IMG/VR virus record: IMGVR_UViG_3300044695_006401
Direction: 5' to 3' (one strand)
Length of the DNA stretch: 64,000 nt
Source: a virus
Taxonomy: Duplodnaviria > Caudoviricetes
Numbering within the stretch: position 1 is the stretch's first letter; every line of letters starts with the position of its first letter. The notes under the pieces were generated by a model. That model saw nothing but the letters and a program-made list of their open reading frames with translations, was not told where the DNA came from and did not search any database. Both the position numbers and the translations under genes were made by a program. Positions 178 to 42,900 of the stretch are shown here, piece after piece.

Positions 178-181
178 ATCA

Positions 182-18592: not shown

Positions 18593-19522
18593 CTAAATCA
18601 ATTCTATTACCTTATTATAAACTTGAATTACCGATGGGTGACATTCAAAAGTTTCTTTTCTTTCTAAACAACCCACTAAAGATGGGACCCCTTGTATTGT
18701 ACCCCATTCTCTAACCCCGTATTTAACATCCGACGCACAATTTAATCCACAACCACCTCTAACATAATGATATTTATATTCTTGGGATCCGTGTCTGTAT
18801 GGTGATCTAAATTCAGGATTTATTGAACTTCCTAATTGTAATATTTCGCAATCTGTAGTCCCTGCCAAATGTAAAAGACCTGAATCCATTGTTACAAAAC
18901 AAGAACAGTTATTTAATAAATGCCAAGTCTGATCTAAACTTGTTTGATTCATCAAGTTATAACCAATTTTAATTGGGAAATTAAAAATAGGTTTGTCAAC
19001 ATTTGAACCACCTAATTCAGAAGAATCTTTACCTACGGAAATAACATAAATTCCTTTTTCATTTAATAACTGAGTTAACATTTGCCAATTTTTTGCAGTC
19101 CAAGTTCTCGAATCCCAATTTTGTACAGGATGGATTAAAACATATTTTTTTGGTAAATCAGGGAGGATAACATCTCTTGGGAAATAATCTAAAGTCATTT
19201 CATCTTTATTTAACATAAACCCTAAAGAGATCGCATGAAACTGTCTTATATCCATGGCATTATGTTTATTACATATACCATCAGATTTATATGAAATATC
19301 AAATGTATTAATTACATGGTACATTTCTTTTAATTGATCCTGATTTGTAGAACCATCAAAAATATTTTCCACATATGGATTTGATTGAAATAACTCAGGT
19401 ATGTTAGTTATTATAGATATTTTTTTACCATAAGAATTATATAGTTTTTTAATTGTTGGTGTCGAGCATAGTGTGTCCCCTAATGCTCTACAACCAGTTA
19501 TATCTAAACATATTTCTTTCAC
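18593..19522 (-). CDS. GT9-like glycosyltransferase (heptosyltransferase fold) with C-terminal Cys cluster
   Basis: ALGDTLC.TP, YVLIHP...R.W...W..L, FVTMDSGLLHLAG; C-terminal CGLNC...C...FECHP. Confidence 0.8.
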   Translation of the reverse strand: MKEICLDITGCRALGDTLCSTPTIKKLYNSYGKKISIITNIPELFQSNPYVENIFDGSTNQDQLKEMYHVINTFDISYKSDGICNKHNAMDIRQFHAISLGFMLNKDEMTLDYFPRDVILPDLPKKYVLIHPVQNWDSRTWTAKNWQMLTQLLNEKGIYVISVGKDSSELGGSNVDKPIFNFPIKIGYNLMNQTSLDQTWHLLNNCSCFVTMDSGLLHLAGTTDCEILQLGSSINPEFRSPYRHGSQEYKYHYVRGGCGLNCASDVKYGVREWGTIQGVPSLVGCLERKETFECHPSVIQVYNKVIELI

Positions 19523-22511: not shown

Positions 22512-23098
22512 TGGAATTTAAGGAAAACAAAATAGACCCGCAAAATTATTATTGGTATCAAAATGGGTTTAGTAAGGAAGAATTAATCAAAGTACATGAA
22601 GGTGTTTCTAATTTACCATTCAGTGAAGCCACTGTTTTTGGAAATGATAATCCTGAGATAATTAAAAAAATTAGAAGTTCGTCCGTTAAGTGGATACCAA
22701 AAACAGATGAGTGGATGTGGTTATATGAAAAACTACTCGACATGGCGAGCACCGCAAACAGAGAGGTTTGGAAGTTTAATCTGATATCAGCTCCCGAGTT
22801 AATTCAGTATACCGAATATTATGACACCGCAGGTGGTCATTATGATTGGCATCAAGATATTGGGCCCGGTATCGGATCAAGTAGAAAGGTTTCTTTGACC
22901 GTTCAACTTTCAGATCCAAGTGAGTATGATGGTGGAGATTTACAGTTATGGAGAGGTGGTGACGATGTTGTTAACGCCGAAAAAGGTGCTGGAGTTGTTT
23001 TTATTTTTCCAAGTTACATGATGCATAGAGTAACCCAAGTGACCAAAGGTACTAGAAGAAGTTTTGTGTTATGGGTTGGTGGTGACCACTATAGATAA
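22511..23098 (+). CDS. 2OG-Fe(II) oxygenase (prolyl-hydroxylase/PKHD-type)
   Basis: YDWHQD, RK.S..VQLS.P.EY.GG.L, HRVT.VTKG.R.S.V.W. Confidence 0.88.
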   Translation: MEFKENKIDPQNYYWYQNGFSKEELIKVHEGVSNLPFSEATVFGNDNPEIIKKIRSSSVKWIPKTDEWMWLYEKLLDMASTANREVWKFNLISAPELIQYTEYYDTAGGHYDWHQDIGPGIGSSRKVSLTVQLSDPSEYDGGDLQLWRGGDDVVNAEKGAGVVFIFPSYMMHRVTQVTKGTRRSFVLWVGGDHYR

Positions 23099-24291
23099 GA
23101 TGAAATTTCTTTTGATTTAAGTATATTGTCCTCTATTGAACAATATGTCCACTCACCGTACCTACCTATTGAAAATATATTTTTTGGGTTGTGTTTTTCA
23201 CACCATCGATTGTAAGTATTTTTTGAGTCATTAGTTATATGCACATATGCGGGGTTCATGATTAGAAATTGGTGGTCGACAAGTTTATGATCGGATATGA
23301 CATTTGTCTTCCTTAAATCATTAAGTACGGTGTCAAGTAAATCAATCTCGTCAACTAAATCATCTTTTTCCAAACCAATCTCAACATACAAACTCAATTT
23401 TTCCTGACCTAAAATATTGTTATAGAAACCAACCCTATAAAAAACCTCTTCATTTGGGTAATATCTCCAATGAGTTTTTATGTCAGAACCTTTATCAAAA
23501 CCTAAATTAAAAACCGCAACTTTATTGGCCGATAAATTATATCTTTGTTTTGTTAAATCTAATAATTTATTTAATGGTAGAGTACTAACTAATTTGTTGA
23601 ATCTTATGTCTCCGATATTTGTTCTAACAATTTTATTAGATAAGTCTATATCTATAACATTAGTATTTAATTGTATTTTACTTTGATCAACCCTCTTTAA
23701 TATAGATTTGATGTATTCATAACTACCATTTATTGGATAAATAAATGTGTCATTGTAACTTATATTAATATTTTCTTGTGGTGGTTTTGGAAAAAATCTA
23801 CCCATGGAATCAAACTCGAGTTGGTTAAGATCACAAGCATATAATTTTTCATTGTAGGGTATAATAAACTTATCACAAATACCATTCCCTAAAGTTGTTC
23901 TAACATAATTCTTAAATGTAGATCTATCTTCAGGTCCACAATTTTTAAGGTCAGTTAGGCACTCGTCATATTCTTCTTTATTAAGTTGGGATATGTTGTG
24001 TTGGAAAGGAAAATTAATAATCTTACCTTGATAATCAATGTCGGTTATTTTATTAACCTCTAACAATTCACAATCAATTTCAGATAAAACATAGTTTTTA
24101 ATTTCTTCATTTCTAAAATGAAAAAAATGTCCCGAATAATCCCATACATAATCACCTCTGATTGTTGTTTTACAATAACCACCTAACTCATTATCTTTCT
24201 CTATGATTAGATAATCTTTCCCATTTAAAAAAGACGCTAAGGATAAACCAGTCACACCACCACCAATAATAAGAATATCAGTTTGTTTCAT
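23089..24291 (-). CDS. FAD-dependent oxidoreductase, UDP-galactopyranose-mutase-like
   Basis: IIGGGVTG, IEK...LGG.C, YSGHFFH, GRYGEW.Y. Confidence 0.75.
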   Translation of the reverse strand: MKQTDILIIGGGVTGLSLASFLNGKDYLIIEKDNELGGYCKTTIRGDYVWDYSGHFFHFRNEEIKNYVLSEIDCELLEVNKITDIDYQGKIINFPFQHNISQLNKEEYDECLTDLKNCGPEDRSTFKNYVRTTLGNGICDKFIIPYNEKLYACDLNQLEFDSMGRFFPKPPQENINISYNDTFIYPINGSYEYIKSILKRVDQSKIQLNTNVIDIDLSNKIVRTNIGDIRFNKLVSTLPLNKLLDLTKQRYNLSANKVAVFNLGFDKGSDIKTHWRYYPNEEVFYRVGFYNNILGQEKLSLYVEIGLEKDDLVDEIDLLDTVLNDLRKTNVISDHKLVDHQFLIMNPAYVHITNDSKNTYNRWCEKHNPKNIFSIGRYGEWTYCSIEDNILKSKEISSYL

Positions 24292-25423
24292 TAATAGTAA
24301 TTTTTTCCATAAAGAAGTTATAGTTTGTGGTTAACCTATCTTTGTGACCCTCAAATAACGGATCGTTAATAATGTTGTTTAACAAATATAAACCTTCATC
24401 ATATCTCTGAGTCCAATAACAAGAAACCGATAACTCATCATTAACATAATTATTATACGAGGTGTCATCCACAAATAGTATATATTTCTTTTTTACATCC
24501 TCAAGGGAAAGATTTTTGGCAATTTTCAAATGTTTGTAACCCATCTCAAAGTCACCAATCTGATTAAAATATAAACCTATTTTATAGTGTGGTTCGGCTC
24601 TGTCCGAAAATATATTAATAGCCCTTAACATTTCGTTATATATTTTTTCTCGATCAAAATTTAATTTCATCATACATATTGAAATTCTCATCTGAGACTC
24701 AAACAATTCTTCCACCCAAGCGTCTTTTAAGTTGGTATATAGTTTGTTCCACTTTAACGCTTCTTCAAACATACCATAGTCCATAAAACTTTGGGCCGCG
24801 TAGAATACGGATCTATAATTCAAACCATCAGGATCGTCAATCAAAGTATCCCAAAATTGTTTTTGGAGTCTTTCAGCGTCGTAATAATATTTCTTAGGGT
24901 CAAAGGCTCTTGACCCAACACCATCCGCAATCACATAACCACGATTGGATAAATCACCAGTCGTGTAATGGTCTTTATCTAAACATTTAATTATTGTGTG
25001 TGCAACGCCACAGAATTTCCACCTTAATCTGTTGTTGTAAATTACGGTTGCCTTCCATGTTGAGGTTCCTCGTTTCATCATCATGAAATAATTGTCATAA
25101 CCAACATCATCAAACCCAAAAGAAAAGTCACCTGCTAAAATATCATCAGCATCTAAATGTAAAACATAATCAGTTTTATCAAAAACATATTCCATCATCA
25201 TGTTTTTGTTTTTATCAAAACCAAACCACTCATCACGATGAATTTCACCAGGTATACCTGTACGATCCATGAACTCTTGTACAATATCTAATGTTCTATC
25301 AGTCGATCCGTTATCGGCAACAACCAAATAATCTATATATGGTGCAACCGCATCTAATACGGTTCCGATGATGTGTTCTTCATTTTTACACATCGTAGCA
25401 AATGCTAATGTTGGTCTATTCAT
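24278..25423 (-). CDS. GT2 glycosyltransferase with C-terminal TPR-like helices
   Basis: CKNEE, D.GSTDRT, LDADD; helical C-terminal half with Y/A TPR pattern. Confidence 0.85.
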   Translation of the reverse strand: MNRPTLAFATMCKNEEHIIGTVLDAVAPYIDYLVVADNGSTDRTLDIVQEFMDRTGIPGEIHRDEWFGFDKNKNMMMEYVFDKTDYVLHLDADDILAGDFSFGFDDVGYDNYFMMMKRGTSTWKATVIYNNRLRWKFCGVAHTIIKCLDKDHYTTGDLSNRGYVIADGVGSRAFDPKKYYYDAERLQKQFWDTLIDDPDGLNYRSVFYAAQSFMDYGMFEEALKWNKLYTNLKDAWVEELFESQMRISICMMKLNFDREKIYNEMLRAINIFSDRAEPHYKIGLYFNQIGDFEMGYKHLKIAKNLSLEDVKKKYILFVDDTSYNNYVNDELSVSCYWTQRYDEGLYLLNNIINDPLFEGHKDRLTTNYNFFMEKITINETN

Positions 25424-26666
25424 AAATTTTGTTTAATATTTCTTCTTCTTGATAATATTTTTTGGTGTAGATCATGTTCTGAAATTTCTGAGAGTGTCCT
25501 ACCGAATCATCCCAATTCCAATCTTTTTTACCTAACTCTAATATTCTATTGTGTATTTGATTATCATAAAAATCTCTAATCAGTCTTGATCTACGATTAA
25601 TATCTACTGAGTTATTATCCACAGTACTATTTCTATCGTTCCATTGTAGATATAACATCTTTTTAATGTGTACTATTTCAGTATTTAAAAATGTTCTAAC
25701 AATCAATTCATAATCATCCGCAACGGGTGTATGAGTATTGTGACCTCCGATCTTATCATACACTCCTTTTTTCCAAACCCTAACATGATTTGGCATACTA
25801 ATATTAAACCTAATTGTGAGGGGATTAATATCGGGATAATGATGATTAATATATGTTTTTCCATCGACCTCCACATAAGTGTGACCTGCATACCCAAAGT
25901 CAAAATAGTTATCGTGTCTGGCATACCAATTACCTGAATAGTCATGATCATAAGTTTTCATCTCACCATCTTCATAAAGTTCACACACATCACTATACAT
26001 AAAACCAGCATTTGGAAACTGTAAACTTGCTTTATGACATTCCTCTAAACATGTTGAAATTAATGTATCATCATGATCTAACTCAACTAACCATTCACCA
26101 TTACAAAGTGATGTCGCTCGATGTTTAACCAAACCAATATTACCGTTACTTTGGGGTAATATGCGGTGTATCTTCACTCTAAAATCTTTTTCAGATATAT
26201 CTTTTATAATATTCCAAGTCGTACCATCATTTGAATCATCAACAATAACCCATTCCCAATCATCGACGGTTTGATTTTTTATACTTTCATAAGTTCTGAT
26301 TATTTTTCTACCTGTTTGAAAAGTTGGTGTGAAGATTGAAAACTTAGGTCTAATATTTTGACAATTTCTAAATGTTGATTGGCATACAACATCATTTGCT
26401 AAAATATTGTCGGGTGGAAAACTTAAATATCTAATTATTCTATTCGAAATAATTTTATTATTTGAGGAAACTCTGTTGTCGCAACCCATGATAATATCAG
26501 GTTGGTAAACCGAAAAATCTTTAATTATATCATCGCTAAAAGGTAATGAATAAATTATAACTTCCTCTAAAAGATTTTCTTCATAATATACATCAGATGT
26601 TAGAGTGAATGTACCTAACTCCCTCCAACCATAAACGATCGCGGATGGTTTTTTTGTTTTCATCAT
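25416..26666 (-). CDS. GT2 glycosyltransferase with N-terminal extension
   Basis: FSIFTPTF, WEWVIVDDS.D, LVELDHDD, IGG....P.ADDYEL; start may be 26663. Confidence 0.85.
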   Translation of the reverse strand: MMKTKKPSAIVYGWRELGTFTLTSDVYYEENLLEEVIIYSLPFSDDIIKDFSVYQPDIIMGCDNRVSSNNKIISNRIIRYLSFPPDNILANDVVCQSTFRNCQNIRPKFSIFTPTFQTGRKIIRTYESIKNQTVDDWEWVIVDDSNDGTTWNIIKDISEKDFRVKIHRILPQSNGNIGLVKHRATSLCNGEWLVELDHDDTLISTCLEECHKASLQFPNAGFMYSDVCELYEDGEMKTYDHDYSGNWYARHDNYFDFGYAGHTYVEVDGKTYINHHYPDINPLTIRFNISMPNHVRVWKKGVYDKIGGHNTHTPVADDYELIVRTFLNTEIVHIKKMLYLQWNDRNSTVDNNSVDINRRSRLIRDFYDNQIHNRILELGKKDWNWDDSVGHSQKFQNMIYTKKYYQEEEILNKIYE

Positions 26667-27247
26667 TTTTCAGTATCAAAAAAGAATGTTTGAAATAAAC
26701 GGCCATCATAAATGTCTTGACCAAAATAATCCAAGGAAATGTGAAAATGATCACCCCTATAAAGAACCAAACGATTATAAACATTTCCAATTCTATCAAC
26801 TAATTCCCATTTAGTCATGTCTTGTGAATCTTTATATATTTGATTTAATATATCCATATTATAGGATCCGTCCTCATTTTTAGGTGCCATTGTTAGACCT
26901 GTTGGTTTATGTTTAAATAAACCAGTGCCTGAACTTAGTGGAGCATCTGGGGTTAAATAACATACTCCAGCCCATTTAGTTGTTTGATCTGCGTGGATCC
27001 AACTACGATCTTTAGATGTTGTAAATTGGTATGACCCTGTATATTGTTCTTCAGACCAATAAGTTACTTTTCCATAATATGGGAATACAACAGATTCTAT
27101 AACATCTTTCATAGAATCGTTTAAAAAAGATTTGGTTCTCCTACCTGGATAATTACCACTTACAGGGTAATCTTGCTGTAGTGCGAACTTTCTAACTTCA
27201 TCAACATCTGAGTAAAAGTCATCAATAATATAAGTGGATATTTGCAT
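26663..27247 (-). CDS. 2OG-Fe(II) oxygenase-fold protein (DUF6445-like)
   Basis: IIDDFY, YPG.RT, WIHAD, YL.P...SGT, NRL..Y....FH, RL.Q.FF. Confidence 0.72.
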   Translation of the reverse strand: MQISTYIIDDFYSDVDEVRKFALQQDYPVSGNYPGRRTKSFLNDSMKDVIESVVFPYYGKVTYWSEEQYTGSYQFTTSKDRSWIHADQTTKWAGVCYLTPDAPLSSGTGLFKHKPTGLTMAPKNEDGSYNMDILNQIYKDSQDMTKWELVDRIGNVYNRLVLYRGDHFHISLDYFGQDIYDGRLFQTFFFDTEK

Positions 27248-27293: not shown

Positions 27294-27746
27294 TTAACAA
27301 GGACCTTGATAAACTAAAGTAGATCCATTCCATTGGTAACAATCGTTCCCATCTGAATAAAATCCACTTGGTGCTGGAGTAGTACATTGATCCTCATCAA
27401 ATATTCCAGTGGCAAATGCTAATAAACATGGGTCATCCTGACAAGTTCGTTTCAAATAAACACTTCTTATATCATTACACTCACAAGACTTTCTACAATC
27501 ATCTCTGTCAAAACATAAGTTAGCAGGACAACAGTCAGGTACACATGTAGGTGTTGGAGTAGGTGTTGGTCTTGGAGTAGGTGTTGGTCCTCCAGGTGTT
27601 GGTGTTGGTGTTGGTGTTGGGGTAGGTGTTGGACAAAATGGGTTGTCATCCCAAAATTTTATATCTCCACCAGCACCCGCTAATAAATTATTAACCGCAT
27701 TTATATTACCACATAATACATCATTAAGTTTAGTTATATTACCCAT
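27294..27746 (-). CDS. small Cys-rich protein with Pro/Thr linker
   Basis: PTPTPTPTP linker then about 10 Cys in C-terminal domain. Confidence 0.75.
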   Translation of the reverse strand: MGNITKLNDVLCGNINAVNNLLAGAGGDIKFWDDNPFCPTPTPTPTPTPTPGGPTPTPRPTPTPTPTCVPDCCPANLCFDRDDCRKSCECNDIRSVYLKRTCQDDPCLLAFATGIFDEDQCTTPAPSGFYSDGNDCYQWNGSTLVYQGPC

Positions 27747-27753: not shown

Positions 27754-30700
27754 TCATACTAATTCAATCCAATCTTGTGAAGGATTAAAGTAAATTATAT
27801 CAGCTGAAATCGCATAACCAACAACTCTTACTATGTCACTAGTGCCCGATGGTTGAGTGGATGTTATATCTCCATCGGTAGTTGATAAATACAACACTTG
27901 ACCTGGAGTCCAGTTCCATGCCGATCTATATGCATAACCTCGTAACATCATACCCGAGTTGAATTGAACACCTATCGCCATTCCAAGTAGACCCTGAGCG
28001 GTTGCAGAACTATCAGCATCCGCAAGTGCCCATGCTGAACCACTTGTCCAATAGTATACATTATATTTAGTTGAGGTTCCGCTACCACCAAATGTTACAA
28101 GTTCGCCATAATAATCATCGATAGTCATGAGTGTGGTCGGATCAGTCGCTAATCTCCATTCACCCTCTAATAAGGTTGTTGAACTAGTATTAGCTCTAAA
28201 CAAGTTAGCACCTGTATTAATGGTAAAGGCGGCACTTGAGTTCGCTGAATTCGATGTACCGTTTGCAACTAAAATATTATTAGCAGTAGTTGGAGAAATT
28301 GATGTAAATCCTGCACCTTGGGCCCCTTGTGCCCCCTGTGGACCAGGACCTCCCGTTGCACCTTGAGCCCCTTGGGCTCCAGTTGCCCCTAATCCCGCAG
28401 GTCCAGTTGGTCCTTGTGCTCCTTGAGGTCCAGGTCCGCCTGTCGCTCCTTGTGCTCCTTGAGGTCCAGGACCGCCTGTAGCTCCTTGTGCTCCTTGAGG
28501 TCCAGGACCACCTGTTGCTCCTTGAGCTCCGGTCGCTCCTTGGGCACCTTGAGGTCCAGGTCCGCCTGTTGCTCCTTGTGCACCTTGAGGTCCAGGTCCG
28601 CCTGTTGCTCCTTGGGCACCTTGAGGTCCAGGTCCGCCTGTTGCTCCTTGAGCTCCGGTCGCTCCTTGTGCACCTTGAGGTCCAGGTCCGCCTGTTGCTC
28701 CTTGTGCTCCGGTTGCTCCTTGTGCTCCGTTAACTCCGCTAGTTCCATTTGTTCCTGAAGTACCAGCAGCACCTTGTGCTCCGGTTGCTCCTTGTGCTCC
28801 AGTTGCTCCTTGTGCTCCGGTTGCTCCTTGTGCTCCGTTAACGCCTGAAGTACCTCTCGTACCGCTAGTTCCATTTGTTCCTGAAGTACCAGCGGCCCCT
28901 TGTGCTCCGGTTGCTCCTTGTGCTCCAGTTGCTCCTTGTGCTCCGTTAACTCCGCTAGTTCCATTTGTTCCTGAAGTACCAGCGGCCCCTTGTGCTCCGG
29001 TTGCTCCTTGTGCTCCAGTTGCTCCTTGTGCTCCGTTAACTCCGCTAGTTCCATTTGTTCCTGAAGTGCCAGCGGCTCCTTGTGCTCCAGTTGCACCTTG
29101 TGCTCCAGTCGCTCCTTGTGCTCCGTTAACTCCGCTAGTTCCATTTGTTCCTGAAGTGCCAGCAGCTCCTTGTGCTCCAGTTGCACCTTGTGCTCCGGTT
29201 GCTCCTTGTGCTCCGGTTGCTCCTTGTGCTCCGTTAACTCCGCTAGTTCCATTTGTTCCTGAAGTACCAGCAGCACCTTGTGCTCCGGTTGCTCCTTGTG
29301 CTCCAGTTGCTCCTTGTGCTCCGGTTGCTCCTTGTGCTCCGTTAACGCCTGAAGTACCTCTCGTACCGCTAGTTCCATTTGTTCCTGAAGTACCAGCGGC
29401 CCCTTGTGCTCCGGTTGCTCCTTGTGCTCCAGTTGCTCCTTGTGCTCCGTTAACTCCGCTAGTTCCATTTGTTCCTGAAGTACCAGCGGCCCCTTGTGCT
29501 CCGGTTGCTCCTTGTGCTCCAGTTGCTCCTTGTGCTCCGTTAACTCCGCTAGTTCCATTTGTTCCTGAAGTGCCAGCGGCTCCTTGTGCTCCAGTTGCAC
29601 CTTGTGCTCCAGTCGCTCCTTGTGCTCCGTTAACTCCGCTAGTTCCATTTGTTCCTGAAGTACCAGCGGCTCCTTGTGCTCCAGTTGCTCCTTGTGCTCC
29701 GTTAACACCTGATGTTCCTCTCGTACCGCTAGTACCGTTTGTTCCTGAAGTCCCATTCGTTCCATTTGTACCTGACGTTCCGTTAGTCCCGTTTGTTCCA
29801 TTTGTCCCGTTAGTACCTGACGTACCATTTGTTCCGCTAGTACCGTTTGTTCCTGACGTTCCATTTGTACCGTTTGTACCTGAAGTACCATTGGTTCCAC
29901 TTGTGCCGTTAGTTCCGTTAGTACCTGAAGTTCCATTTGTACCATTTGTTCCCGAAGTTCCGTTAGTTCCTGATGTGCCATTTGTTCCTGATGTTCCATT
30001 TGTACCACTTGTGCCGTTTGTTCCTGATGTTCCATTAGTACCATTGGTACCTGATGTTCCGTTTGTACCATTCGTCCCATTAGTTCCTGACGTTCCGTTT
30101 GTGCCATTCGTTCCTGATGTACCTCTTGTACCTGACGTACCGTTTGTTCCATTCGTTCCGCTAGTACCATTTGTTCCTGAAGTTCCGTTGGTTCCATTAG
30201 TCCCCGATGTTCCATTGGTTCCGTTGGTACCTGATGTGCCATTAGTTCCATTTGTTCCTGATGTTCCGTTTGTACCATTAGTACCTGAAGTGCCGGCAGC
30301 ACCTTGAGCTCCCTGAGGTCCAGTTGGTCCTTGTGCTCCCTGAGGTCCAGTCGCGCCTTGTGCTCCAACCGCACCTTGAGCTCCCTGAGGTCCAGTTGCG
30401 CCTTGTGCTCCGTTTACTCCTGATGTACCATTAGTACCTGAAGTACCCGCAGCCCCTTGAGCTCCTTGTGGTCCAGTCGCCCCTTGAGCGCCTTGTGGTC
30501 CAGTGGCACCTTGTGCCCCATTTACTCCTGATGTTCCGTTTGTCCCCGATGTACCATTTGTACCATTAAGACCACTTACTCCCGAAGTACCATTAGTTCC
30601 TGATGTACCATTAGTTCCGTTCGTACCTGAAGTCCCATTAGTACCATTAGTTCCCGAAGTTCCGTTTGTTCCATTAGTTCCTGATGTTCCTCTTGTCCCT

Positions 30701-33700
30701 GAAGTTCCATTGGTTCCTGAAGTGCCGTTTGTTCCACTAGTACCATTTGTACCATTAGTTCCTGATGTTCCGTTTGTTCCACTAGTACCATTTGTTCCAC
30801 TAGTACCATTTGTACCTGAAGTACCATTTGTCCCATTCGTTCCGCTAGTTCCGTTAGTTCCATTAGTACCGCTAGTTCCGTTCGTTCCTGATGTACCGTT
30901 TGTACCATTAGTTCCGTTAGTTCCTGAAGTTCCATTTGTACCGTTTGTTCCACTTGTACCATTTGTCCCCGAAGTCCCGTTGGTTCCATTAGTTCCTGAT
31001 GTTCCTCGTGTCCCTGATGTTCCATTCGTTCCGCTAGTACCGTTAGTTCCCGATGTTCCATTAGTACCGTTGGTGCCACTTGAACCATTCGTTCCCGATG
31101 TTCCATTAGTACCGCTCGTACCGTTAGTACCATTCGTTCCACTAGTACCGTTAGTTCCCGAAGTACCGTTAGTACCTGAAGTCCCATTAGTTCCATTTGT
31201 TCCTGAAGTACCATTAGTACCGTTTGTACCTGAAGTACCATTAGTTCCACTTGACCCGTTTGTCCCTGAAGTACCATTTGTCCCACTAGTTCCATTTGTT
31301 CCTGATGTACCATTGGTTCCATTTGTTCCCGATGTACCGTTTGTACCTGATGTTCCATTAGTTCCTGAAGTACCATTCGTGCCTGAGGTTCCATTTGTTC
31401 CGTTAGTTCCGCTTGTACCATTAGTCCCGTTTGTGCCTGATGTTCCATTAGTTCCGCTTGTACCATTAGTCCCGTTAGTACCATTTGTACCGGATGTTCC
31501 TCTTGTGCCAGAAGTCCCGTTCGTTCCGCTAGTACCGTTTGTACCATTCGTTCCTGAAGTTCCATTTGTGCCTGATGTGCCGTTAGTTCCATTGGTTCCC
31601 GAAGTTCCATTAGTACCTGAAGTACCATTTGTCCCGTTTGTACCGCTAGTACCATTAGTTCCCGATGTTCCATTAGTACCATTCGTACCTGAGGTTCCAT
31701 TTACACCACTTGTTCCATTTGTTCCGTTTGTACCAGAAGTCCCATTAGTTCCACTTGTACCGTTGGTTCCACTTGAACCATTTGTTCCTGAAGTCCCGTT
31801 GGTACCATTTGTTCCTGAAGTCCCGTTGGTACCATTTGTTCCGTTAGTTCCTGATGTTCCATTCGTTCCGCTAGTACCGTTAGTTCCATTAGTACCTGAT
31901 GTTCCGTTAGTACCACTCGTACCATTTGTACCGTTAGTTCCTGAAGTTCCATTAGTACCGCTTGTTCCGTTAGTTCCTGAAGTACCATTCGTGCCTGAGG
32001 TTCCATTTGTTCCGTTTGTACCACTAGTACCGTTCGTACCATTCGTTCCGTTAGTACCTGAAGTTCCGTTTGTACCGGATGTTCCATTAGTACCGCTAGT
32101 ACCATTAGTTCCATTTGTTCCGTTCGTACCCGATGTTCCGTTCGTACCATTCGTTCCTGATGTTCCTCTTGTACCACTAGTGCCATTTGTTCCTGAAGTA
32201 CCGTTAGTTCCGTTTGTACCTGATGTGCCGTTTGTTCCTGAAGTTCCATTGGTCCCGTTAGTTCCTGAAGTACCATTTGTACCGGATGTTCCATTAGTAC
32301 CGTTTGTTCCATTGGTTCCTGAAGTTCCATTTGTTCCACTAGTTCCATTGGTACCGTTAGTTCCTGAAGTACCATTTGTTCCATTAGTCCCTGATGTTCC
32401 GTTAGTTCCAGATGTTCCATTTGTCCCGCTAGTTCCGTTTGTACCGCTAGTTCCGTTTGTTCCATTAGTCCCTGATGTACCATTTGTACCCGAAGTTCCA
32501 TTAGTTCCTGATGTACCATTTGTGCCAGATGTTCCGTTTGTTCCATTAGTTCCTGATGTACCGTTTGTTCCTGAAGTACCATTCGTTCCGTTTGTACCGC
32601 TAGTACCATTCGTTCCTGAAGTACCATTCGTTCCACTTGTACCATTTGTACCATTCGTTCCGCTAGTCCCGTTTGTTCCACTAGTACCATTCGTACCGTT
32701 AGTTCCAGATGTTCCGTTAGTTCCAGATGTTCCGTTGGTTCCGTTCGTTCCTGAAGTTCCATTCGTACCATTTGTCCCTGATGTTCCTCTTGTTCCTGAA
32801 GTTCCATTCGTACCTGAAGTTCCGTTAGTTCCGCTAGTTCCATTCGTACCATTTGTCCCGTTGGTTCCTGATGTTCCATTAGTACCATTCGTACCGCTAG
32901 TTCCATTTGTTCCTGATGTTCCATTAGTACCATTCGTACCGCTAGTCCCATTTGTTCCTGATGTACCATTGGTTCCATTTGTTCCTGACGATCCATTAGT
33001 TCCGTTTGTTCCTGACGATCCATTCGTACCATTTGTGCCAGATGTTCCGTTAGTTCCACTAGTTCCATTCGTACCGTTTGTTCCGCTTGTTCCATTGGTC
33101 CCGTTTGTTCCCGAAGTACCATTTGTGCCTGAAGTACCATTTGTACCATTCGTTCCGCTAGTTCCATTCGTACCGCTAGTTCCATTCGTACCGCTAGTTC
33201 CGTTTGTTCCATTAGTCCCTGATGTACCGTTGGTTCCGCTAGTTCCATTTGTACCATTTGTCCCACTAGTGCCATTAGTTCCATTGGTACCGTTTGTTCC
33301 TGATGTTCCTCTTGTTCCTGAAGTTCCGTTTGTTCCACTAGTACCATTCGTACCATTTGTACCGCTAGTTCCATTTGTACCGCTAGTTCCATTTGTTCCT
33401 GATGTCCCGTTTGTACCGTTAGTTCCTGAAGTACCATTCGTTCCGCTAGTTCCATTTGTACCTGATGTACCATTTGTTCCTGATGTTCCGTTCGTACCGT
33501 TAGTGCCTGAAGTACCATTCGTTCCGCTAGTACCATTCGTACCATTCGTGCCTGATGTACCATTCGTGCCGTTCGTTCCAGAAGTTCCGTTTGTTCCATT
33601 CGTTCCGCTAGTTCCGTTTGTACCATTAGTTCCCGATGTTCCGTTTGTTCCGCTAGACCCGTTTGTTCCATTTGTACCTGAAGTCCCATTCGTTCCGCTA

Positions 33701-36700
33701 GTACCATTCGTACCATTTGTACCTGAAGTACCATTGGTTCCGTTTGTACCACTTGAACCATTTGTTCCGCTAGTACCGTTAGTTCCTGATGTTCCATTGG
33801 TCCCGTTTGTACCTGAAGTACCATTGGTTCCTGATGTTCCATTGGTCCCGTTTGTTCCGCTAGTGCCATTCGTACCGTTAGTTCCCGATGTTCCGTTAGT
33901 TCCTGATGTACCATTAGTTCCATTTGTACCATTAGTCCCACTTGTTCCGTTAGTACCGTTCGTTCCTGATGTTCCATTTGTACCATTAGTTCCTGAAGTT
34001 CCGTTGGTTCCGTTTGTACCATTCGTACCTGAAGTTCCATTCGTACCATTAGTCCCTGATGTTCCTCTTGTTCCTGAAGTACCGTTGGTACCGCTTGAAC
34101 CATTTGTTCCGTTTGTTCCCGATGTCCCATTAGTACCATTTGTACCTGAAGTACCATTAGTTCCGCTAGTTCCGTTTGTACCTGATGTTCCATTCGTACC
34201 ATTGGTTCCTGACGTTCCGTTAGTACCATTTGTACCTGAAGTTCCATTAGTTCCTGATGTTCCGTTAGTACCATTTGTACCTGAAGTTCCATTTGTACCT
34301 GAAGTTCCATTAGTTCCAGATGTTCCGTTTGTTCCATTGGTCCCACTTGTACCATTAGTTCCGTTTGTTCCGCTAGTGCCATTAGTACCCGAAGTTCCGT
34401 TGGTTCCTGAAGTACCGTTCGTACCATTTGTTCCTGAAGTCCCATTCGTACCGTTTGTACCCGATGTTCCGTTTGTACCGTTAGTACCACTTGAACCATT
34501 CGTTCCGCTAGTTCCATTAGTTCCGTTGGTACCTGAAGTACCATTTGTTCCGCTAGTACCATTCGTACCATTTGTTCCTGAAGTTCCTCTTGTCCCTGAT
34601 GTTCCGTTAGTTCCGGAAGTACCATTTGTTCCGTTTGTACCCGAAGTACCGTTTGTACCCGATGTTCCGTTAGTTCCATTAGTGCCTGACGTACCGTTAG
34701 TTCCGTTGGTTCCGTTCGTTCCTGAAGTTCCATTTGTACCGTTAGTACCTGATGTACCGTTGGTACCATTCGTACCGCTAGTCCCATTAGTACCATTGGT
34801 CCCGCTCGTACCATTAGTTCCTGATGTTCCATTAGTTCCGTTGGTACCTGAAGTTCCATTCGTTCCTGATGATCCATTAGTACCATTAGTACCGCTTGAT
34901 CCATTTGTTCCATTCGTACCTGAAGTACCGTTAGTTCCCGATGTACCGTTAGTTCCTGATGTACCATTCGTACCATTTGTTCCACTTGTACCGTTCGTTC
35001 CATTTGTTCCCGAAGTTCCATTAGTTCCACTAGTTCCATTAGTTCCGTTTGTACCATTTGTTCCTGAGGTTCCATTAGTACCGCTAGTACCATTCGTTCC
35101 GTTAGTTCCTGATGTACCATTGGTCCCGCTCGTACCGTTGGTTCCCGAAGTTCCATTTGTACCATTCGTACCTGAAGTTCCGTTTGTACCATTAGTACCT
35201 GATGTGCCGTTTGTTCCTGAAGTTCCGTTTGTTCCTGAGGTACCATTTGTGCCTGAAGTCCCATTGGTTCCGTTTGTACCCGATGTTCCGTTAGTTCCAT
35301 TAGTGCCACTTGTCCCATTAGTTCCATTCGTACCGTTTGTTCCCGAAGTTCCGTTAGTTCCTGACGATCCATTTGTGCCGTTAGTACCTGAAGTACCGTT
35401 TGTTCCGCTCGTACCATTAGTACCATTCGTTCCTGATGTGCCATTAGTACCATTCGTTCCTGATGTACCGTTTGTTCCACTGGTTCCATTAGTTCCTGAA
35501 GTTCCGTTGGTGCCCGATGTTCCATTAGTCCCATTCGTTCCTGAGGTACCGTTTGTTCCGTTTGTACCTGAAGTTCCACGAGTACCTGAAGTCCCATTAG
35601 TCCCCGAAGTACCATTAGTCCCACTTGTTCCATTAGTACCGTTCGTACCTGAAGTTCCATTAGTACCGTTCGTACCTGAAGTTCCGTTTGTGCCGCTAGT
35701 ACCATTCGTTCCTGATGTACCATTCGTACCATTTGTACCTGATGTTCCATTCGTCCCATTAGTTCCGGATGTTCCGTTAGTACCATTTGTTCCATTGGTA
35801 CCTGAAGTACCATTAGTACCATTAGTTCCATTTGTTCCCGATGTACCATTTGTACCGTTAGTACCATTTGTTCCTGAAGTTCCATTAGTACCGTTCGTGC
35901 CTGATGTACCATTCGTTCCGTTTGTTCCATTAGTCCCGCTAGTCCCGTTTGTACCATTAGTTCCATTTGTTCCACTAGTTCCATTTGTTCCTGATGTCCC
36001 GTTGGTACCATTCGTTCCGCTAGTTCCATTTGTTCCTGATGTACCATTGGTTCCATTTGTTCCTGATGTACCATTTGTACCGCTAGATCCATTGGTTCCT
36101 GATGTACCATCAGTACCTGAAGTACCTCTAGTTCCTGAAGTCCCGTTTGTACCATTAGTGCCTGATGTTCCGTTCGTACCAGATGTCCCATTTGTGCCTG
36201 AAGTTCCATTAGTCCCGTTGGTTCCTGAAGTACCGTTTGTTCCATTAGTTCCTGAGGTTCCATTTGTACCATTCGTCCCTGAAGTCCCATTCGTTCCGCT
36301 AGTACCATTTGTACCGTTGGTGCCTGATGTTCCATTAGTTCCTGAAGTACCATTCGTACCATTGGTCCCTGATGTTCCATTTGTACCGTTGGTACCATTA
36401 GTGCCTGAAGTACCTCTTGTTCCTGATGTCCCATTAGTTCCGCTAGTACCATTTGTGCCTGAGGTTCCGTTTGTACCACTGGTACCATTGGTACCATTTG
36501 TACCCGAAGTCCCATCGGCACCCGCAATGTCCCAATTTGATCCATCACTTTGTACGGTTATTGAGCCATATTGTGTTAAAGTTTTTGTTGAGCTACCATC
36601 TATAGTTTGACCTCCTGTTGTTGCAAGAGTAATTGTTCCTGATCCACTATTTTTGATGACAAAAATTTGTCCCGCAATACCAACAGATGTCGGTAAGGTG

Positions 36701-36837
36701 ACCGTAAATGTACCTGTGGTACAATCTACAAGATAATTACTTCGATTAATTGTGTATGTCGTGGTAACCGCACTATACGGAAATAATACCCCACCTAAAG
36801 ATTTGACCCCATTACGGGCTACGAATTCATTTGACAT
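27754..36837 (-). CDS. giant collagen-like fibre protein A (3027 aa)
   Basis: About 105-aa N-terminal beta domain, about 2740 residues of Gly-X-Y, C-terminal domain resembling capsid cement/decoration fold. Confidence 0.88.
28309..36522 (-). repeat. Gly-X-Y repeat region (GTN/GTS dominant; GAQ/GAT/GPQ blocks toward C-terminus)
   Basis: Gly every third residue, essentially unbroken by eye apart from a GL interruption near the end. Confidence 0.95.
28694..29660 (-). repeat. 504-bp-period near-exact tandem duplication inside fibre A
   Basis: Marker ctccgttaac at 28725/28833/28941/29031/29121 recurs at +504 (29229/29337/29445/29535/29625). Confidence 0.8.
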
Positions 36838-36946: not shown

Positions 36947-39900
36947 TTAGAATATAATTCTTGTTGAAACAAGTATAGTCCATGTTCCTCCACCTATAGC
37001 GCAAGCTAATTCGACACTACCACCAGAAACCTGAACTTTCCAAACAAAATTTGCCGTGGAACCACCCAAATCAGGACTTGATACATCGGTACCATCCCCA
37101 TTCGTGTTATTCCATACTGCGTACACTTGACCTATCCTTTTTGCTCCACCATTTTCAGTAACACAATATTCAAATATAGCACCACACCCAATATCAGTAC
37201 CGTAAGATTCAACAACTTGTCCAGAAGAGATATTCGTCAAACTTGTTGTATTAACTAAACTGTGTGTAGAATTAAGAGTTAAAGTACCATCAGATCCGTT
37301 ATATGTAAATCCAGATTCAGCAACAATATTACCAGACCCATCCGAAGTTAGTACCTCGTTGTCAGCCCCAGGAACTATAGGTGTAGTACCACTTGTTCCA
37401 TTCGTTCCGTTAGTTCCTGATGTACCGTTAGTCCCGCTAGTTCCATTTGTTCCAGAAGTACCATTAGTTCCTGATGTTCCATTAGTCCCTGAAGTTCCGT
37501 TTGTACCTGAAGTACCATTCGTACCGTTAGTACCTGATGTACCATTAGTTCCCGATGTCCCGTTAGTCCCGTTTGTTCCCGAAGTACCATTCGTACCGCT
37601 AGTTCCGTTAGTTCCACTCGTACCATTCGTACCGCTAGTTCCATTTGTTCCGTTAGTTCCACTCGTACCATTCGTACCGCTAGTTCCATTTGTTCCGTTA
37701 GTTCCACTCGTACCATTCGTACCATTGGTACCGCTAGTCCCATTTGTCCCACTAGTTCCGTTCGTCCCATTAGTCCCGTTAGTACCTGAAGTACCATTTG
37801 TACCATTTGTTCCAGAAGTACCGTTTGTACCTGATGTTCCGTTGGTTCCATTTGTTCCGTTTGTTCCTGAAGTACCGTTTGTACCGTTGGTTCCACTTGT
37901 CCCATTAGTCCCTGAGGTTCCATTTGTACCATTTGTTCCAGAAGTACCGTTTGTACCTGATGTACCATTTGTTCCCGAAGTACCATTAGTACCGTTTGTT
38001 CCTGATGTTCCGTTAGTACCGTTGGTACCACTAGTTCCATTAGTCCCTGAGGTTCCGTTAGTTCCATTCGTTCCGCTAGTTCCATTCGTTCCGCTAGTTC
38101 CGTTTGTACCTGATGTTCCGTTTGTTCCATTAGTTCCTGAAGTTCCATTCGTTCCGCTAGTTCCGTTTGTACCATTCGTCCCTGAAGTTCCATTGGTACC
38201 TGAGGTACCGTTTGTCCCATTCGTTCCGCTAGTACCATTAGTTCCTGATGTTCCGTTAGTTCCATTCGTTCCTGATGTACCATTTGTTCCATTAGTCCCT
38301 GACGTTCCGTTTGTACCATTTGTACCTGACGATCCATTAGTCCCTGAAGTTCCGTTTGTACCTGATGTACCGTTTGTACCATTCGTCCCTGAAGTTCCAT
38401 TGGTTCCACTTGAACCATTTGTTCCGTTAGTTCCTGAAGTACCGTTAGTACCGTTCGTTCCCGATGTTCCGTTTGTTCCACTAGTACCATTAGTTCCTGA
38501 AGTCCCATTCGTTCCGTTTGTACCTGATGTTCCGTTTGTTCCATTAGTTCCTGAAGTACCGTTAGTACCCGATGTTCCGTTTGTTCCTGATGTTCCATTT
38601 GTACCTGAAGTACCATTAGTTCCATTTGTACCTGAAGTTCCATTAGTACCTGATGTTCCATTAGTACCATTTGTTCCTGAAGTTCCATTAGTACCATTTG
38701 TTCCTGAAGTTCCGTTAGTACCTGAAGTACCATTAGTTCCGTTAGTTCCTGACGTTCCGTTCGTTCCTGATGTACCATTAGTTCCTGAAGTTCCATTCGT
38801 ACCGTTAGTTCCGCTAGTACCATTCGTACCGCTTGTTCCGTTAGTCCCCGAAGTTCCATTGGTTCCATTAGTACCTGATGTTCCATTAGTACCTGATGTT
38901 CCGTTTGTACCTGATGTTCCATTTGTACCATTAGTCCCACTTGTACCGTTTGTACCATTTGTCCCGCTAGTTCCATTAGTACCTGAAGTTCCGTTTGTTC
39001 CTGAAGTTCCATTAGTACCGTTAGTTCCTGACGTTCCGTTAGTTCCGTTTGTTCCCGATGTTCCATTAGTACCATTTGTTCCACTTGTGCCGTTAGTACC
39101 GTTAGTTCCTGAAGTACCATTTGTTCCGCTAGTTCCGTTAGTACCATTCGTTCCACTAGTACCATTAGTTCCGTTTGTTCCCGATGTTCCATTCGTTCCA
39201 CTAGTACCATTAGTTCCCGAAGTACCATTAGTACCATTAGTTCCTGATGTTCCATTTGTACCTGAGGTTCCATTTGTTCCATTTGTTCCGCTAGTGCCGT
39301 TTGTACCTGAAGTTCCGTTAGTTCCTGAAGTTCCATTTGTACCATTTGTACCGCTAGTTCCATTTGTCCCATTCGTACCTGAGGTACCATTTGTTCCACT
39401 TGTACCATTTGTTCCATTTGTACCTGAAGTGCCGTTTGTTCCGTTGGTTCCTGAAGTTCCGTTTGTCCCATTGGTACCATTTGTTCCTGAAGTTCCGTTT
39501 GTACCTGAAGTACCATTAGTTCCACTCGTACCATTAGTTCCCGATGTTCCATTGGTGCCGTTAGTCCCATTCGTTCCACTAGTTCCGTTAGTTCCATTTG
39601 TACCTGATGTGCCGTTAGTACCATTTGTTCCAGAAGTCCCGTTAGTACCTGAAGTACCATTAGTCCCGTTAGTACCAGAAGTTCCGTTTGTACCACTAGT
39701 TCCATTAGTTCCACTAGTTCCATTAGTTCCATTAGTTCCACTAGTTCCTGAAGATCCATTTGTACCATTAGTACCTGAAGTTGATGTGTAAGCAACCGCA
39801 GCAACTCCGATGTTCTTGATAGTTACTATAATTGATGGTGCCGCAGGTGCTATGTAAGGTGATGTTTGAGCCGCCTCCGCTGTCAATTGGACATCTTCTG

Positions 39901-42900
39901 AAGTACTAGCAAAAACTAATTCCAAGTAATCATTTTGTTGTAAATCAGCCACGATCGAAACAAATGGTAATTGTTTGACGCTATTAGACACTAATCCTAA
40001 AATACTATCAGTTCTTATTATATTAGTACCATTTTTTCTAACAAAGAAATCCACATCTACAGCAGCACCCCCTTGATTTTTTTCAACTTGGGGGGAAAAA
40101 CTGAATTCATATATACCTGAGTATTGTACAGTTACCCTACTTCCGCTCACAACCGAAATACCATTCTCAATTTCAACCGTATTGTATGTTACAACCGTAG
40201 GGGTATTTGCCCCTGAAACTTGTTGTGTTAAACTACTACTATATTGGGCATAATAGTTAGCAACCCCCGCACCACTACTTCCTGAAGTCCCATTTGTCCC
40301 GCTAGTTCCGTTCGTACCATTAGTCCCTGAAGTTCCGTTTGTACCATTAGTCCCTGAAGTTCCATTAGTCCCTGAAGTACCATTTGTACCGTTAGTTCCG
40401 CTAGTTCCATTTGTACCATTGGTCCCGTTCGTACCTGATGTTCCATTTGTTCCGCTAGTTCCATTTGTTCCGCTAGTACCGCTAGTTCCATTTGTTCCGC
40501 TAGTACCGTTAGTTCCATTCGTTCCTGAAGTCCCATTTGTACCGCTTGATCCATTAGTACCCGATGTTCCATTGGTTCCGTTCGTTCCGCTCGTACCATT
40601 TGTTCCACTTGAACCATTGGTTCCATTTGTTCCGCTAGTACCATTAGTTCCTGAGGTTCCGTTCGTTCCGTTAGTACCACTTGTACCATTTGTTCCGTTA
40701 GTACCTGAAGTTCCGTTCGTTCCACTAGTTCCATTTGTACCATTCGTTCCACTCGTACCGTTAGTACCCGAAGTACCATTTGTTCCATTGGTTCCGCTCG
40801 TACCGTTAGTACCTGAAGTTCCATCTGTTCCGTTGGTTCCTGAAGTTCCATTAGTACCACTTGACCCATCTGTTCCATTAGTTCCTGATGTTCCGTCTGT
40901 ACCATTAGTCCCTGAAGTACCATTTGTTCCACTTGACCCATCCGTACCATTAGTTCCGCTGGTTCCGTCGCTACCACTAGTACCATCTGTTCCGTTTGTT
41001 CCTGAAGTTCCGTCAGTTCCCGACGTTCCATTAGTTCCGTCAGTACCGCTAGTACCATCTGTTCCGTTAGTTCCTGAAGTTCCATTAGTCCCATTTGTAC
41101 CTGAAGTTCCGTTGGTACCATTCGTACCGCTAGTTCCATTCGTACCATTTGTACCACTACTTCCATCCGTACCGCTAGTTCCATCGGTACCATTAGTTCC
41201 GTTTGTACCATTCGTTCCTGACGTTCCATCCGTTCCTGACGTTCCATCCGTACCTGAAGTTCCATCTGTCCCTGAAGTTCCATCCGTTCCGTTTGTTCCA
41301 CTTGTACCATCCGTTCCGTTAGTACCTGAAGTACCATCTGTTCCGCTTGAACCATCCGTTCCATTAGTACCTGATGTTCCGTCTGTACCGTTGGTTCCTG
41401 AAGTTCCATCTGTACCATTTGTACCTGAAGTACCATCCGTACCATCCGTACCATTTGTTCCGCTAGTTCCATCTGTTCCGCTAGTACCATCCGTACCATT
41501 AGTTCCTGAAGTTCCATTCGCACCATTAGTCCCATTTGTACCATTAGTCCCGCTTGTACCATTTGTACCATTAGTCCCGCTTGTACCATTTGTACCTGAT
41601 GTTCCGTTTGTACCTGAAGTACCGTTAGTTCCATTTGTTCCGTTAGTACCCGAAGTTCCGTTGGTGCCACTTGTACCATTGGTTCCATTTGTACCAGAAG
41701 TCCCATTTGTTCCACTAGTACCATTAGTCCCTGAAGTACCGTTTGTACCGTTAGTTCCACTTGTGCCGTTCGTACCTGAAGTTCCATTAGTACCGTTTGT
41801 ACCTGATGTTCCATTCGTACCGTTAGTACCTGAAGTACCATTTGTTCCTGATGTTCCATTGGTTCCTGATGTACCGTTAGTACCATTTGTTCCTGAGGTT
41901 CCATTGGTTCCGGATGTTCCGTTTGTTCCGCTAGTACCATTCGTTCCGTTAGTACCTGATGTCCCGTTTGTCCCATTTGTACCTGATGTTCCATTTGTAC
42001 CACTAGTACCGTTTGTACCTGAAGTTCCGTTAGTTCCATTAGTTCCGCTAGTACCATTAGTCCCTGATGTCCCATTTGTACCATTACTTCCCGATGTTCC
42101 ATCGGTCCCGCTAGTACCATTAGTTCCAGAAGTTCCGTCGGTACCGCTCGACCCTGAAGTTCCTGATGTGCCGTCTGTTCCTGAGGATCCACTTGTTCCG
42201 CTAGTACCATCCGTACCACTAGAACCTGATGTTCCACTTGTGCCATCGGTACCGCTTGATCCTGAAGAACCTGATGTTCCACTTGTTCCGTCAGTACCTG
42301 AAGAACCGCTTGTGCCGCTTGAACCAGATGTCCCTGATGTACCGTCTGTTCCGCTAGAACCTGAAGTTCCACTTGTACCGTCAGTACCGCTCGACCCTGA
42401 AGTTCCTGATGTGCCGTCTGTTCCTGAGGACCCACTTGTTCCGCTAGAACCTGATGTCCCGCTAGAACCTGATGTCCCGCTAGTTCCGTCAGTTCCTGAA
42501 GATCCACTTGTTCCACTAGTACCATCTGTACCTGAAGATCCGCTCGTCCCATTAGTACCATCTGTTCCTGAAGTTCCATCCGTACCTGAAGTACCATCTG
42601 TTCCTGAAGTACCATCTGTTCCACTTGTCCCGTCTGTTCCGTTAGTACCTGAAGAACCACTAGTGCCATCCGTACCATTTGTTCCTGATGAACCACTAGT
42701 TCCATCAGTTCCGCTTGAACCCGAAGTTCCGTTAGTACCATCCGTACCGCTTGTTCCACTAGTCCCATCTGTTCCGCTAGAACCAGATGTTCCATCTGTG
42801 CCTGAAGACCCATTTGTCCCATCAGTACCTGAGGTTCCACTTGACCCACTAGTGCCATTCGTACCACTTGAACCTGATGTACCGTTAGTTCCATTAGTTC

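Follow-up and report, generated by a model that had tools for sequence, protein, structure and literature searches.

Collagen-like stretches are well known from phage fibres, where they span tens of Gly-X-Y triplets, and textbooks attribute the stability of collagen to imino acids, to hydroxyproline or to networks of charges. Here we describe fibre A, a gene in a 64,000-nt stretch of viral DNA (IMG/VR record IMGVR_UViG_3300044695_006401; Duplodnaviria, Caudoviricetes) that we refer to as the window. It encodes a very long repeat of mainly Gly-Thr-Asn (GTN) and Gly-Thr-Ser (GTS) triplets, and we regard it as probable that the product is a collagen-like, glycosylated virion fibre, with attachment to the tail as the preferred but least certain step. 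Several described systems resemble fibre A in part. In EPclA, the tail-fibre collagen of an E. coli O157 prophage, the triple helix is nucleated by the C-terminal domain (PMC3368898). EPclA combines an N-terminal phage-fibre domain, a Gly-X-Y stalk and a C-terminal trimerising knob and varies in length by multiples of three residues, a layout that fibre A appears to share. However, the EPclA collagen domain comprises 111 residues (~30 nm), has a Pro-rich X position, is charged and unglycosylated and melts at 42°C, whereas fibre A has a tract of 2,738 residues, 2,008 of them without Pro, is almost uncharged, bears other end domains and lies beside a dedicated modification locus.

Bacillus BclA is likewise a surface fibre with Thr-rich Gly-X-Y triplets, a C-terminal trimerising domain, adjacent O-glycosylation enzymes and a polymorphic repeat number. 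Its GPT repeats run for tens of triplets and its C-terminal domain is C1q-like; fibre A has neither the GXT repeats nor the C1q-like end of this type, but Thr in X, no Pro in the main shaft, 904 triplets, a beta-tulip knob and a candidate transferase of the BAHT family. The cuticle collagen of Riftia with its galactosylated Thr (work by Mann et al. 1996 and Bann et al. 2000) is said to be of micrometre scale and to owe its stability to glycosylated Thr rather than hydroxyproline. This is an animal extracellular protein with Thr in Y after a Pro-rich X, whereas fibre A is encoded by a phage and has Thr in X and Asn or Ser in Y. Mimivirus, too, encodes a collagen-like protein together with a hydroxylase and glycosyltransferases and carries a glycosylated fibre layer; however, it is a eukaryotic giant virus with hydroxylysine-linked glucose on its collagen, and our comparison with it does not rest on homology of end domains or enzymes. 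In the literature we found no description of micrometre-scale, Pro-free Ser/Thr/Asn collagen fibres in phages. The gene and its parts are as follows; relatives are cited by locus number (L).

27754-36837, minus strand: fibre A gene (P0001), an open reading frame (ORF) of 3,027 residues; L033/L034, L003, L004 and L002 carry orthologues that share its end domains
36523-36837, minus strand: N-terminal domain (residues 1-105), modelled as a beta-sandwich of the tailspike-anchor / depolymerase C-terminal type (AlphaFold2 pLDDT 88.6)
30499-36522, minus strand: proline-free, nearly charge-free GTN/GTS tract (residues 106-2113, 669 triplets)
28309-30498, minus strand: mixed collagen tract (residues 2114-2843), GTN/GTS blocks alternating with other modules (18 protein letters not shown)
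27757-28308, minus strand: C-terminal domain (residues 2844-3027), linker and modelled beta-tulip knob (AlphaFold2 pLDDT >90 for the ~130 residues of the knob)

The repeat at 28309-36522 coincides exactly with residues 106-2843 of the ORF. Residues 106-2817 form 904 Gly-X-Y triplets without interruption, followed by a 2-residue break and 8 further triplets. GTN (440) and GTS (295) account for 81% of the 904, with Thr at 83% of X positions in the tract and Asn or Ser at Y. The first proline of the tract stands at residue 2114 and ends a proline-free series of 2,008 residues; 24 prolines are found in total, next to 17 charged residues (2 Asp and 15 Arg), while Glu, Lys and His are absent. The original prediction, made from the letters alone, had claimed a collagen-type GTN/GTS repeat of extraordinary length, nearly unbroken and largely Pro-free, and this description is borne out: as a triple helix, the tract would measure ~780 nm (~0.78 micrometre; calculated at 0.286 nm per residue). 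The Pfam family Collagen (PF01391) scores 268-294 bits per tract, pure GTN/GTS included, at a gathering cut-off of 27.2. From around residue 2114, in the C-terminal quarter, GTN/GTS is interleaved with further modules (15 protein letters not shown) and with GGP modules. All prolines, the single 2-residue break and the near-perfect DNA repeats of 504 nt lie in this mixed tract, and the Gly phase is kept without a shift where GTN/GTS gives way to canonical collagen triplets (GAQ/GPQ).

No two triplets with Ser in Y stand next to each other in the repeat (0 seen versus ~99 expected; the lowest count among 2,000 shuffles was 79), GTN runs comprise 1-3 triplets, and every one of the 15 GTR triplets is flanked by GTS. 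Arg in Y strongly stabilises the collagen helix; the other ordering rules may reflect glycan spacing or chain registration. We looked for a longer periodicity and found none, as the Y pattern loses its autocorrelation beyond 2-5 triplets. In fibre B, the adjacent gene described below, the second tract follows the rule of no adjacent GTS (1 adjacency in 105), whereas the first does not (53).

These features bear on two readings without a collagen helix. According to the first, the product would be a heavily O-glycosylated, mucin-like single chain or a loose polymer brush, with Gly providing flexibility and the ends providing attachment. The composition of Thr, Ser, Asn and Gly is indeed like that of glycosylated linkers, a weak tendency to form helices is predicted for GTN/GTS, and neighbouring phage proteins use Thr-Pro linkers. 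However, a disordered linker needs no Gly at every third position, and this spacing is kept over 904 triplets with zero slips at a DNA identity of ~65-80%; the ordering rules (no adjacent Y=Ser, GTS-flanked GTR) argue for a defined structure, canonical collagen triplets follow in the same frame, and the end domains have trimer folds. We judge the brush to be improbable. The second reading, proposed in the original prediction, is a polyglycine-II or polyproline II (PPII) bundle like that of snow-flea antifreeze protein, in which the Thr array would bind ice. A three-residue Gly periodicity, regular Thr and a cold freshwater habitat would suit it. Bundles of this type have ~45% Gly, small residues at two positions of every triplet and short stretches of PPII connected by regular turns, whereas in fibre A Gly amounts to 34%, X is mostly beta-branched Thr, and both non-Gly positions bear side chains and offer no second small packing face. 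Furthermore, 2,000 residues show no sign of turns or loops at regular intervals, fibre A exceeds any such bundle 30-fold in length, and the canonical collagen continuation, the trimeric ends and the synteny with glycosyltransferases point elsewhere. The bundle is not supported, and we give it hardly any credence.

A different concern, raised with the original prediction, is that the repeat is an artefact of metagenome assembly, its length inflated by mis-joined repeats or strain variants. Contigs of related phages often break in or beside these genes. The DNA of the repeat, however, speaks against recent copying. TRF reports ~65% DNA identity between repeat units, codon usage for Gly, Thr, Asn and Ser inside the repeat equals that in other phage genes, and the 31-mers of the GTN/GTS part are unique in 91% of cases and repeated in 8.6%. 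The Gly periodicity is therefore held by selection at the protein level: the repeat is neither a chance product nor a recent amplification but is old and diversified in its DNA. We also scanned both fibre genes exhaustively for self-similarity along all diagonals in 200-nt windows. Every window of the GTN/GTS part is at most 85% identical to any other in either gene, a background level to be expected when one peptide is encoded over and over with synonymous sites free to vary, and this together with the unique 31-mers excludes identical repeats and concatenated strain variants in this part. Near-perfect repeats with a 504-nt period are confined to 28354-29553 (GAQ/GAT/GVN modules), where the longest exact repeat is 464 nt; this is the sole part of the gene in which the copy number could be mis-assembled or recently expanded.

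The stretch is present in at least 24 lake-water metagenome runs. In four independent lake runs (2020, 2024), Logan contigs cover 30/30 bins with exact pieces along the entire gene. No contig bridging the fibre A gene was found in these four runs, the Logan pieces being 190-680 nt long with many short-sided joints, a pattern that counts in favour of inflation. Independent assemblies of relatives in IMG/VR nevertheless yield the same or nearly the same long ORFs: complete ones of 2,807 and 2,813 residues (666 and 668 triplets; L072/L073), 2,730 residues (644) and 2,396 residues (566), and further ones, truncated by the limit set on the flanks, of at least 3,100 residues (at least 835 triplets; L087=L089) and at least 3,087 residues (at least 861; L105=L106), each from two assemblies. 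Across these relatives, triplet counts range from 334 to at least 861. Between samples, phages that are nearly identical carry 666 versus 668 (L072/L073) and 334 versus 342 triplets (L033/L034); these differences of 2 and 8 triplets are natural length polymorphism in whole-triplet steps. Given the unique 31-mers, the window scan, the pieces from lakes and the long relatives, inflation is very unlikely, save perhaps for the copy number of the GAQ/GAT modules.

The genuine repeat thus combines a strict Gly phase with synonymous drift, a canonical continuation and fibre-type ends, and together with the prophage precedent this leads us to propose a homotrimeric collagen-type shaft. The typical bacterial collagen places Pro at X and Thr at Y (PMC8968730), and the composition of fibre A is the inverse. 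Known stabilising compositions, namely Pro in X with Hyp, Thr or Arg in Y, or many charged pairs, are not found in the tract. The original prediction had called these triplets poor helix formers, in agreement with published propensities; because of this composition an extra stabiliser would be needed, and the conserved, BAHT-centred locus next to the fibre genes is the obvious candidate. It comprises, together with the second fibre gene:

18593-19522, minus strand: GT9-family glycosyltransferase (309 residues; 71% identical copy in L002)
19575-22511, plus strand: fusion of GT4, TibC-like BAHT and FkbM methyltransferase (978 residues; identified by Pfam and TibC, 4rap), candidate fibre O-glycosyltransferase
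22511-23098, plus strand: 2-oxoglutarate (2OG)-Fe(II) oxygenase, PKHD/PiuC-like
23089-24291, minus strand: UDP-galactopyranose mutase (UGM) homologue, eukaryote-type (E 5e-20 to Aspergillus UGM)
24278-25423, minus strand: GT2 glycosyltransferase
25416-26666, minus strand: GT2 glycosyltransferase
26663-27247, minus strand: DUF6445 protein, 2OG-Fe(II)-type oxygenase
27294-27746, minus strand: ORF of 150 residues immediately following fibre A; Thr-Pro linker and Cys-rich domain of 85 residues, kept in position in five relatives
36947-45043, minus strand: fibre B gene (P0002), 2,698 residues, directly upstream of fibre A
45062-46225, minus strand: 387-residue protein directly before fibre B, with two domains and an 80-residue Thr-Pro linker, conserved in L033/L034

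Enzymes of the TibC/AAH type hyper-glycosylate Ser-rich repetitive adhesins in the cytoplasm. The alignment of the fusion's TibC-like domain with TibC (4rap) extends across 318 residues at E 1e-66. Asp110, the catalytic base, is retained, as are Thr226, Lys230 and Trp305 out of four residues that bind the sugar, and all iron-finger cysteines (Cys339/342/358/370); Pro300 is replaced by Gly. The roles of the TibC residues have been described (PMC4358343), and judged by sequence the phage enzyme resembles these enzymes, which hyper-glycosylate a long fibre or adhesin with Ser-rich repeats inside the cytoplasm. However, the known TibC/AAH substrates are beta-helical autotransporter passengers, whereas the phage enzyme is fused to GT4 and FkbM and stands beside collagen-like genes. 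In the literature no BAHT enzyme linked to collagen was found. The UGM homologue suggests, by its sequence, galactofuranose in the glycan. Possible substrates of the two 2OG oxygenases are the few prolines of the mixed tract, Asn, or sugars. A LamG-domain protein lies past the GT9 enzyme.

We scanned IMG/VR for the BAHT domain and obtained 357 viral contigs, from which we took the loci of a close clade (at least 59% identity) that have at least 4 kb of flank. A Pro-free, Ser/Thr-rich collagen ORF lies within 10 kb of the enzyme in 38 of the 45 close-clade loci. The order of the cassette, 387-residue protein, fibre B, fibre A, small ORF, BAHT fusion, is the same in L033/L034, and its core recurs in L002, L003 and L004. 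In L033/L034, fibre B has 1,713 residues and fibre A 1,305-1,329 residues with 334-342 GSS/GTS triplets; among close relatives, fibre length differs about threefold. Gln/Pro-type collagen fibres that share the C-terminal domain (L012, L016) have no BAHT nearby. That glycosylation might stabilise the repeat had been suggested in the original prediction, and this idea gains independent support from the adjoining TibC-type fusion, glycosyltransferases, mutase homologue and two 2OG oxygenases and from the synteny in 38/45 loci. Ser/Thr fills 66-91% of X and Y positions in the relatives, while Asn can vanish and the N-X-S/T sequons with it; since Ser/Thr persists where sequons are lost, O-glycosylation is favoured over N-glycosylation. 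N-glycosylation of the 447 N-G-T/S sequons was considered separately and set aside: no NGT/PglB-type enzyme is seen in the locus, and close orthologues swap Asn for Ser (GSS/GTS), by which they lose sequons and retain Ser/Thr.

The fibre gene pair is bracketed by the two proteins with Thr-Pro linkers, of which the 150-residue one is perhaps a chaperone, an adaptor or a tip. PHROGs and Pfam searches with the genes flanking the fibres (45-54 kb and the 150-residue ORF) gave low-complexity matches to Thr-Pro linkers or none.

We then turn to the ends of the fibre. In VIA comparisons, the N-terminal domain has matches well above background, first the C-terminal domain of the Acinetobacter phage Solidus tailspike with Z 12.3, followed by the CBA120 TSP4-N assembly domains (Z 9.9 and 9.4) and the baseplate cup of Klebsiella phage KP1 (Z 9.3). 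Foldseek returned T4 gp9 with a probability of 0.94, and Pfam Phage_depo_C scored under its cut-off. This likeness to tailspike and fibre-docking domains leads us to propose that the fibre is attached to the virion through its N-terminal domain. Among 29 related viral loci, the domain ends short non-collagen proteins in 24, is internal in 1 and heads Ser/Thr-rich collagen fibres in 4 (L032-L035).

The C-terminal domain matches trimeric capsid decoration proteins with Z 9.7 (8saj), 9.1 (8qsy), 8.5 (Pam3) and 8.0 (Patience); the decoration protein of phage Adjutor aligns over 109 residues with Z 9.7 and a root-mean-square deviation of 2.8. Its twelve top matches are chains of phage or archaeal-virus capsid reconstructions, with herpesvirus capsid entries lower, and it also matches the C-terminal autochaperone of phi29 gp12 (Z 6.1) and the head-fibre base of phi29, gp8.5 (Z 4.7). 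The fold is that of obligate trimers, and by this fold the domain is predicted to be trimeric here. Sequence relatives number 7,607 representative proteins (E <0.001) of 116 to >1,600 residues, in which it stands nearly always at the extreme C-terminus. Structure matches in BFVD are mostly long proteins labelled 'tail fibre-like' by annotators, and the sole cultured matches are a 'tail fiber protein' (again the annotator's label) of Flavobacterium phage immuto, encoded in the tail module. Stand-alone beta-tulip genes of 128-129 residues exist, on contigs of 1.8-5.4 kb with unannotated neighbours. The domain sometimes occurs in tandem: some metagenomic proteins, such as those of 414 and 841 residues, carry at least 3 copies per chain and are possibly pseudo-trimers. 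Sequence searches of the PDB with the N- and C-terminal domains of fibre A and the N-terminal and middle domains of fibre B gave no significant match, and a C1q-like nature of the fibre B insert is no more than a possibility.

Fibre B consists of an N-terminal domain (residues 1-303), 430 triplets, a globular insert of 163 residues (1594-1756), another 266 triplets and a C-terminal domain (2555-2698); its triplets are of the same kind as those of fibre A. The orthologue in L033/L034 is 81% identical in the N-terminal domain, and an ESM-Atlas feature search with this domain returned scores <0.9 and no lead. Stand-alone homologues of the fibre A N-terminal domain (105 residues) and of the fibre B insert (167 residues) lie adjacent to each other in L041 (2518-3323) and L036 (3416-4158), where the pair adjoins a collagen-like tail-fibre gene of another phage. 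This adjacency hints that the N-terminal domain of fibre A might dock on the insert of fibre B, which would give a branched fibre. An argument on fibre polarity from the conservation of the two ends of fibre A was dropped: N- and C-terminal domains are 80% versus 48% identical in L033 and 48% versus 51% in L003, the BAHT identity ranks in the opposite order, and the locus is mosaic.

The capsid matches raise the question of where the fibre sits, for which the position of the fibre genes relative to the structural genes is also of interest:

1365-3185: T4-type portal
3223-4998: large terminase

A head (capsid or neck) fibre would be anchored as a trimer on the capsid by the C-terminal beta-tulip, with the glycosylated 'hair' projecting and the N-terminal beta-sandwich as the distal tip. 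Apart from the top matches of the C-terminal domain, to which an Atlas row labelled 'Phage cement protein' adds, this is favoured by the stand-alone 129-residue versions of the beta-tulip, by the C-terminal and hence distal-type position of the N-terminal domain in 24/29 loci, by its match to the Pa223 capsid spike, by the genes lying close to portal and terminase and far from the baseplate, and by the threefold length variation; SPP1 gp12 is a precedent for a collagen-like capsid binder (PMC7602432). However, decoration proteins grip the capsid mainly by a free N-terminal arm (PMC7602432) and are small stand-alone proteins of the head module, whereas the N-terminus of the beta-tulip here continues into the collagen tract. 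In addition, this domain mostly terminates long tail-fibre-like proteins, the N-terminal fold matches baseplate anchor domains, and filling all three-fold sites of the capsid would, by our own estimate, require several times the capsid mass. We consider this arrangement unlikely.

The gene cluster itself offers a comparison with T4, where g34-g38 include two very long tandem fibre genes with small flanking accessory genes, and where the long-tail-fibre genes likewise sit apart from the baseplate genes. The fold of the fibre A N-terminal domain is related to T4 connectors of the gp9/gp10 type, while no sequence homology to T4 gp34-gp38 was found. T4 shafts are beta-structured and ~145 nm in total, whereas the present shafts would be of collagen type and exceed this length 5-10 times. 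A relative of 292 kb that is 99% complete has Baseplate_J at ~80 kb and the portal at 158 kb, followed by the BAHT gene (~177 kb) and the collagen fibre (~181-188 kb). The window has the same layout, which is not decisive between head and tail. Taking together the kinship of the N-terminal domain with baseplate anchors, the tail-fibre contexts of both end domains and the separate, T4-like cluster, the tail side is most likely: we lean towards tail or baseplate, take capsid or neck to be rather unlikely, and give slightly less weight still to other sites or to no virion fibre at all.

In the glycosylated-fibre reading, fibre A would be a structural virion fibre of an uncultured, freshwater, T4-like jumbo phage of Bacteroidota. 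The C-terminal beta-tulip knob would register three identical chains, the adjoining triplets with Pro, Gln and Ala would nucleate the collagen triple helix, and the helix would then zip toward the N-terminus along the 904 unbroken triplets. Three factors might stabilise it: O-glycosylation of Ser/Thr by the adjacent TibC-type fusion and its accessory enzymes, the 15 Arg in Y acting as 'staples', and sheer length in cold lake water. The N-terminal beta-sandwich would attach the fibre to the virion, with tail/baseplate or fibre B as the likeliest site, and the whole would serve as a very long, flexible host-capture line in a gene cluster like that of the T4 long tail fibres.

Several points weigh against this reading or against single steps of it. 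In the host-guest propensities of Persikov et al. 2000, Thr in X and Asn or Ser in Y are reportedly among the least favourable residues, and the trimeric triple helix, the glycosylation of the fibre, its incorporation into the virion, its attachment site and its function are all steps that we infer. The putative transferase has Val in place of the sugar-binding Arg286, in the distant BAHT clade (50-53% identity) a collagen ORF is nearby in 0/11 loci, and to our knowledge BAHTs act only on beta-helical autotransporters. Regarding tail attachment, the best structural matches of the C-terminal domain are capsid decoration proteins, the N-terminal domain matches the capsid spike of Pseudomonas phage Pa223 with Z 8.6, and the distance from the fibre genes is ~22 kb to the portal and ~100 kb to the gene for the baseplate wedge, both here and in the 99%-complete relative. 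Lastly, the contiguity of the 9-kb gene is without confirmation by any single long read.

The remainder of the window concerns the phage and its host. The GC content is ~31%, and a nucleotide search with positions 1-8000 against 50,697 phage records gave no match; among these records the phage has no close cultured relative. Sorting domains of type IX secretion (Por_Secre_tail, CHU_C) are found on two proteins, which also carry peptidoglycan-binding or PKD-like domains; these C-terminal domains hint, by sequence, at a Bacteroidota host. An AAA+ chaperone has a homologue in the relative L012.

8884-10920, plus strand: ClpB/ClpA-like AAA+ chaperone, full two-ring, 678 residues
51689-53860, minus strand: protein with type-IX-secretion sorting domain
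60362-62596, minus strand: protein with type-IX-secretion sorting domain

Selection has kept 669 successive triplets here with none of the imino acids, hydroxyproline or charge networks. If they form a triple helix, it would be the longest uninterrupted one that we know of in a virus or prokaryote, and it would be stabilised by a different route, probably by sugars and the hydration of Thr, Ser and Asn, which would be relevant to designed collagens and biomaterials. We tentatively propose, as a possibility, an undescribed 'glyco-collagen' class, a micrometre-long Thr/Ser/Asn triple helix free of imino acids and charge, with dense O-glycosylation of the BAHT type and with A+B capture lines of ~0.8-1.4 micrometres on a clade of freshwater jumbo phages. 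If this were true, fibre A would be the first collagen substrate of the BAHT family and a new solution to collagen stability; as a candidate substrate, it would add phage virion proteins to the bacterial adhesins on which the TibC/AAH family acts. If a widespread clade of jumbo phages from lakes (the 357 IMG/VR contigs with the linked enzyme) has fibres that exceed the T4 long tail fibre five- to tenfold in length, this would bear on how large, slowly diffusing phages meet their hosts in dilute water.

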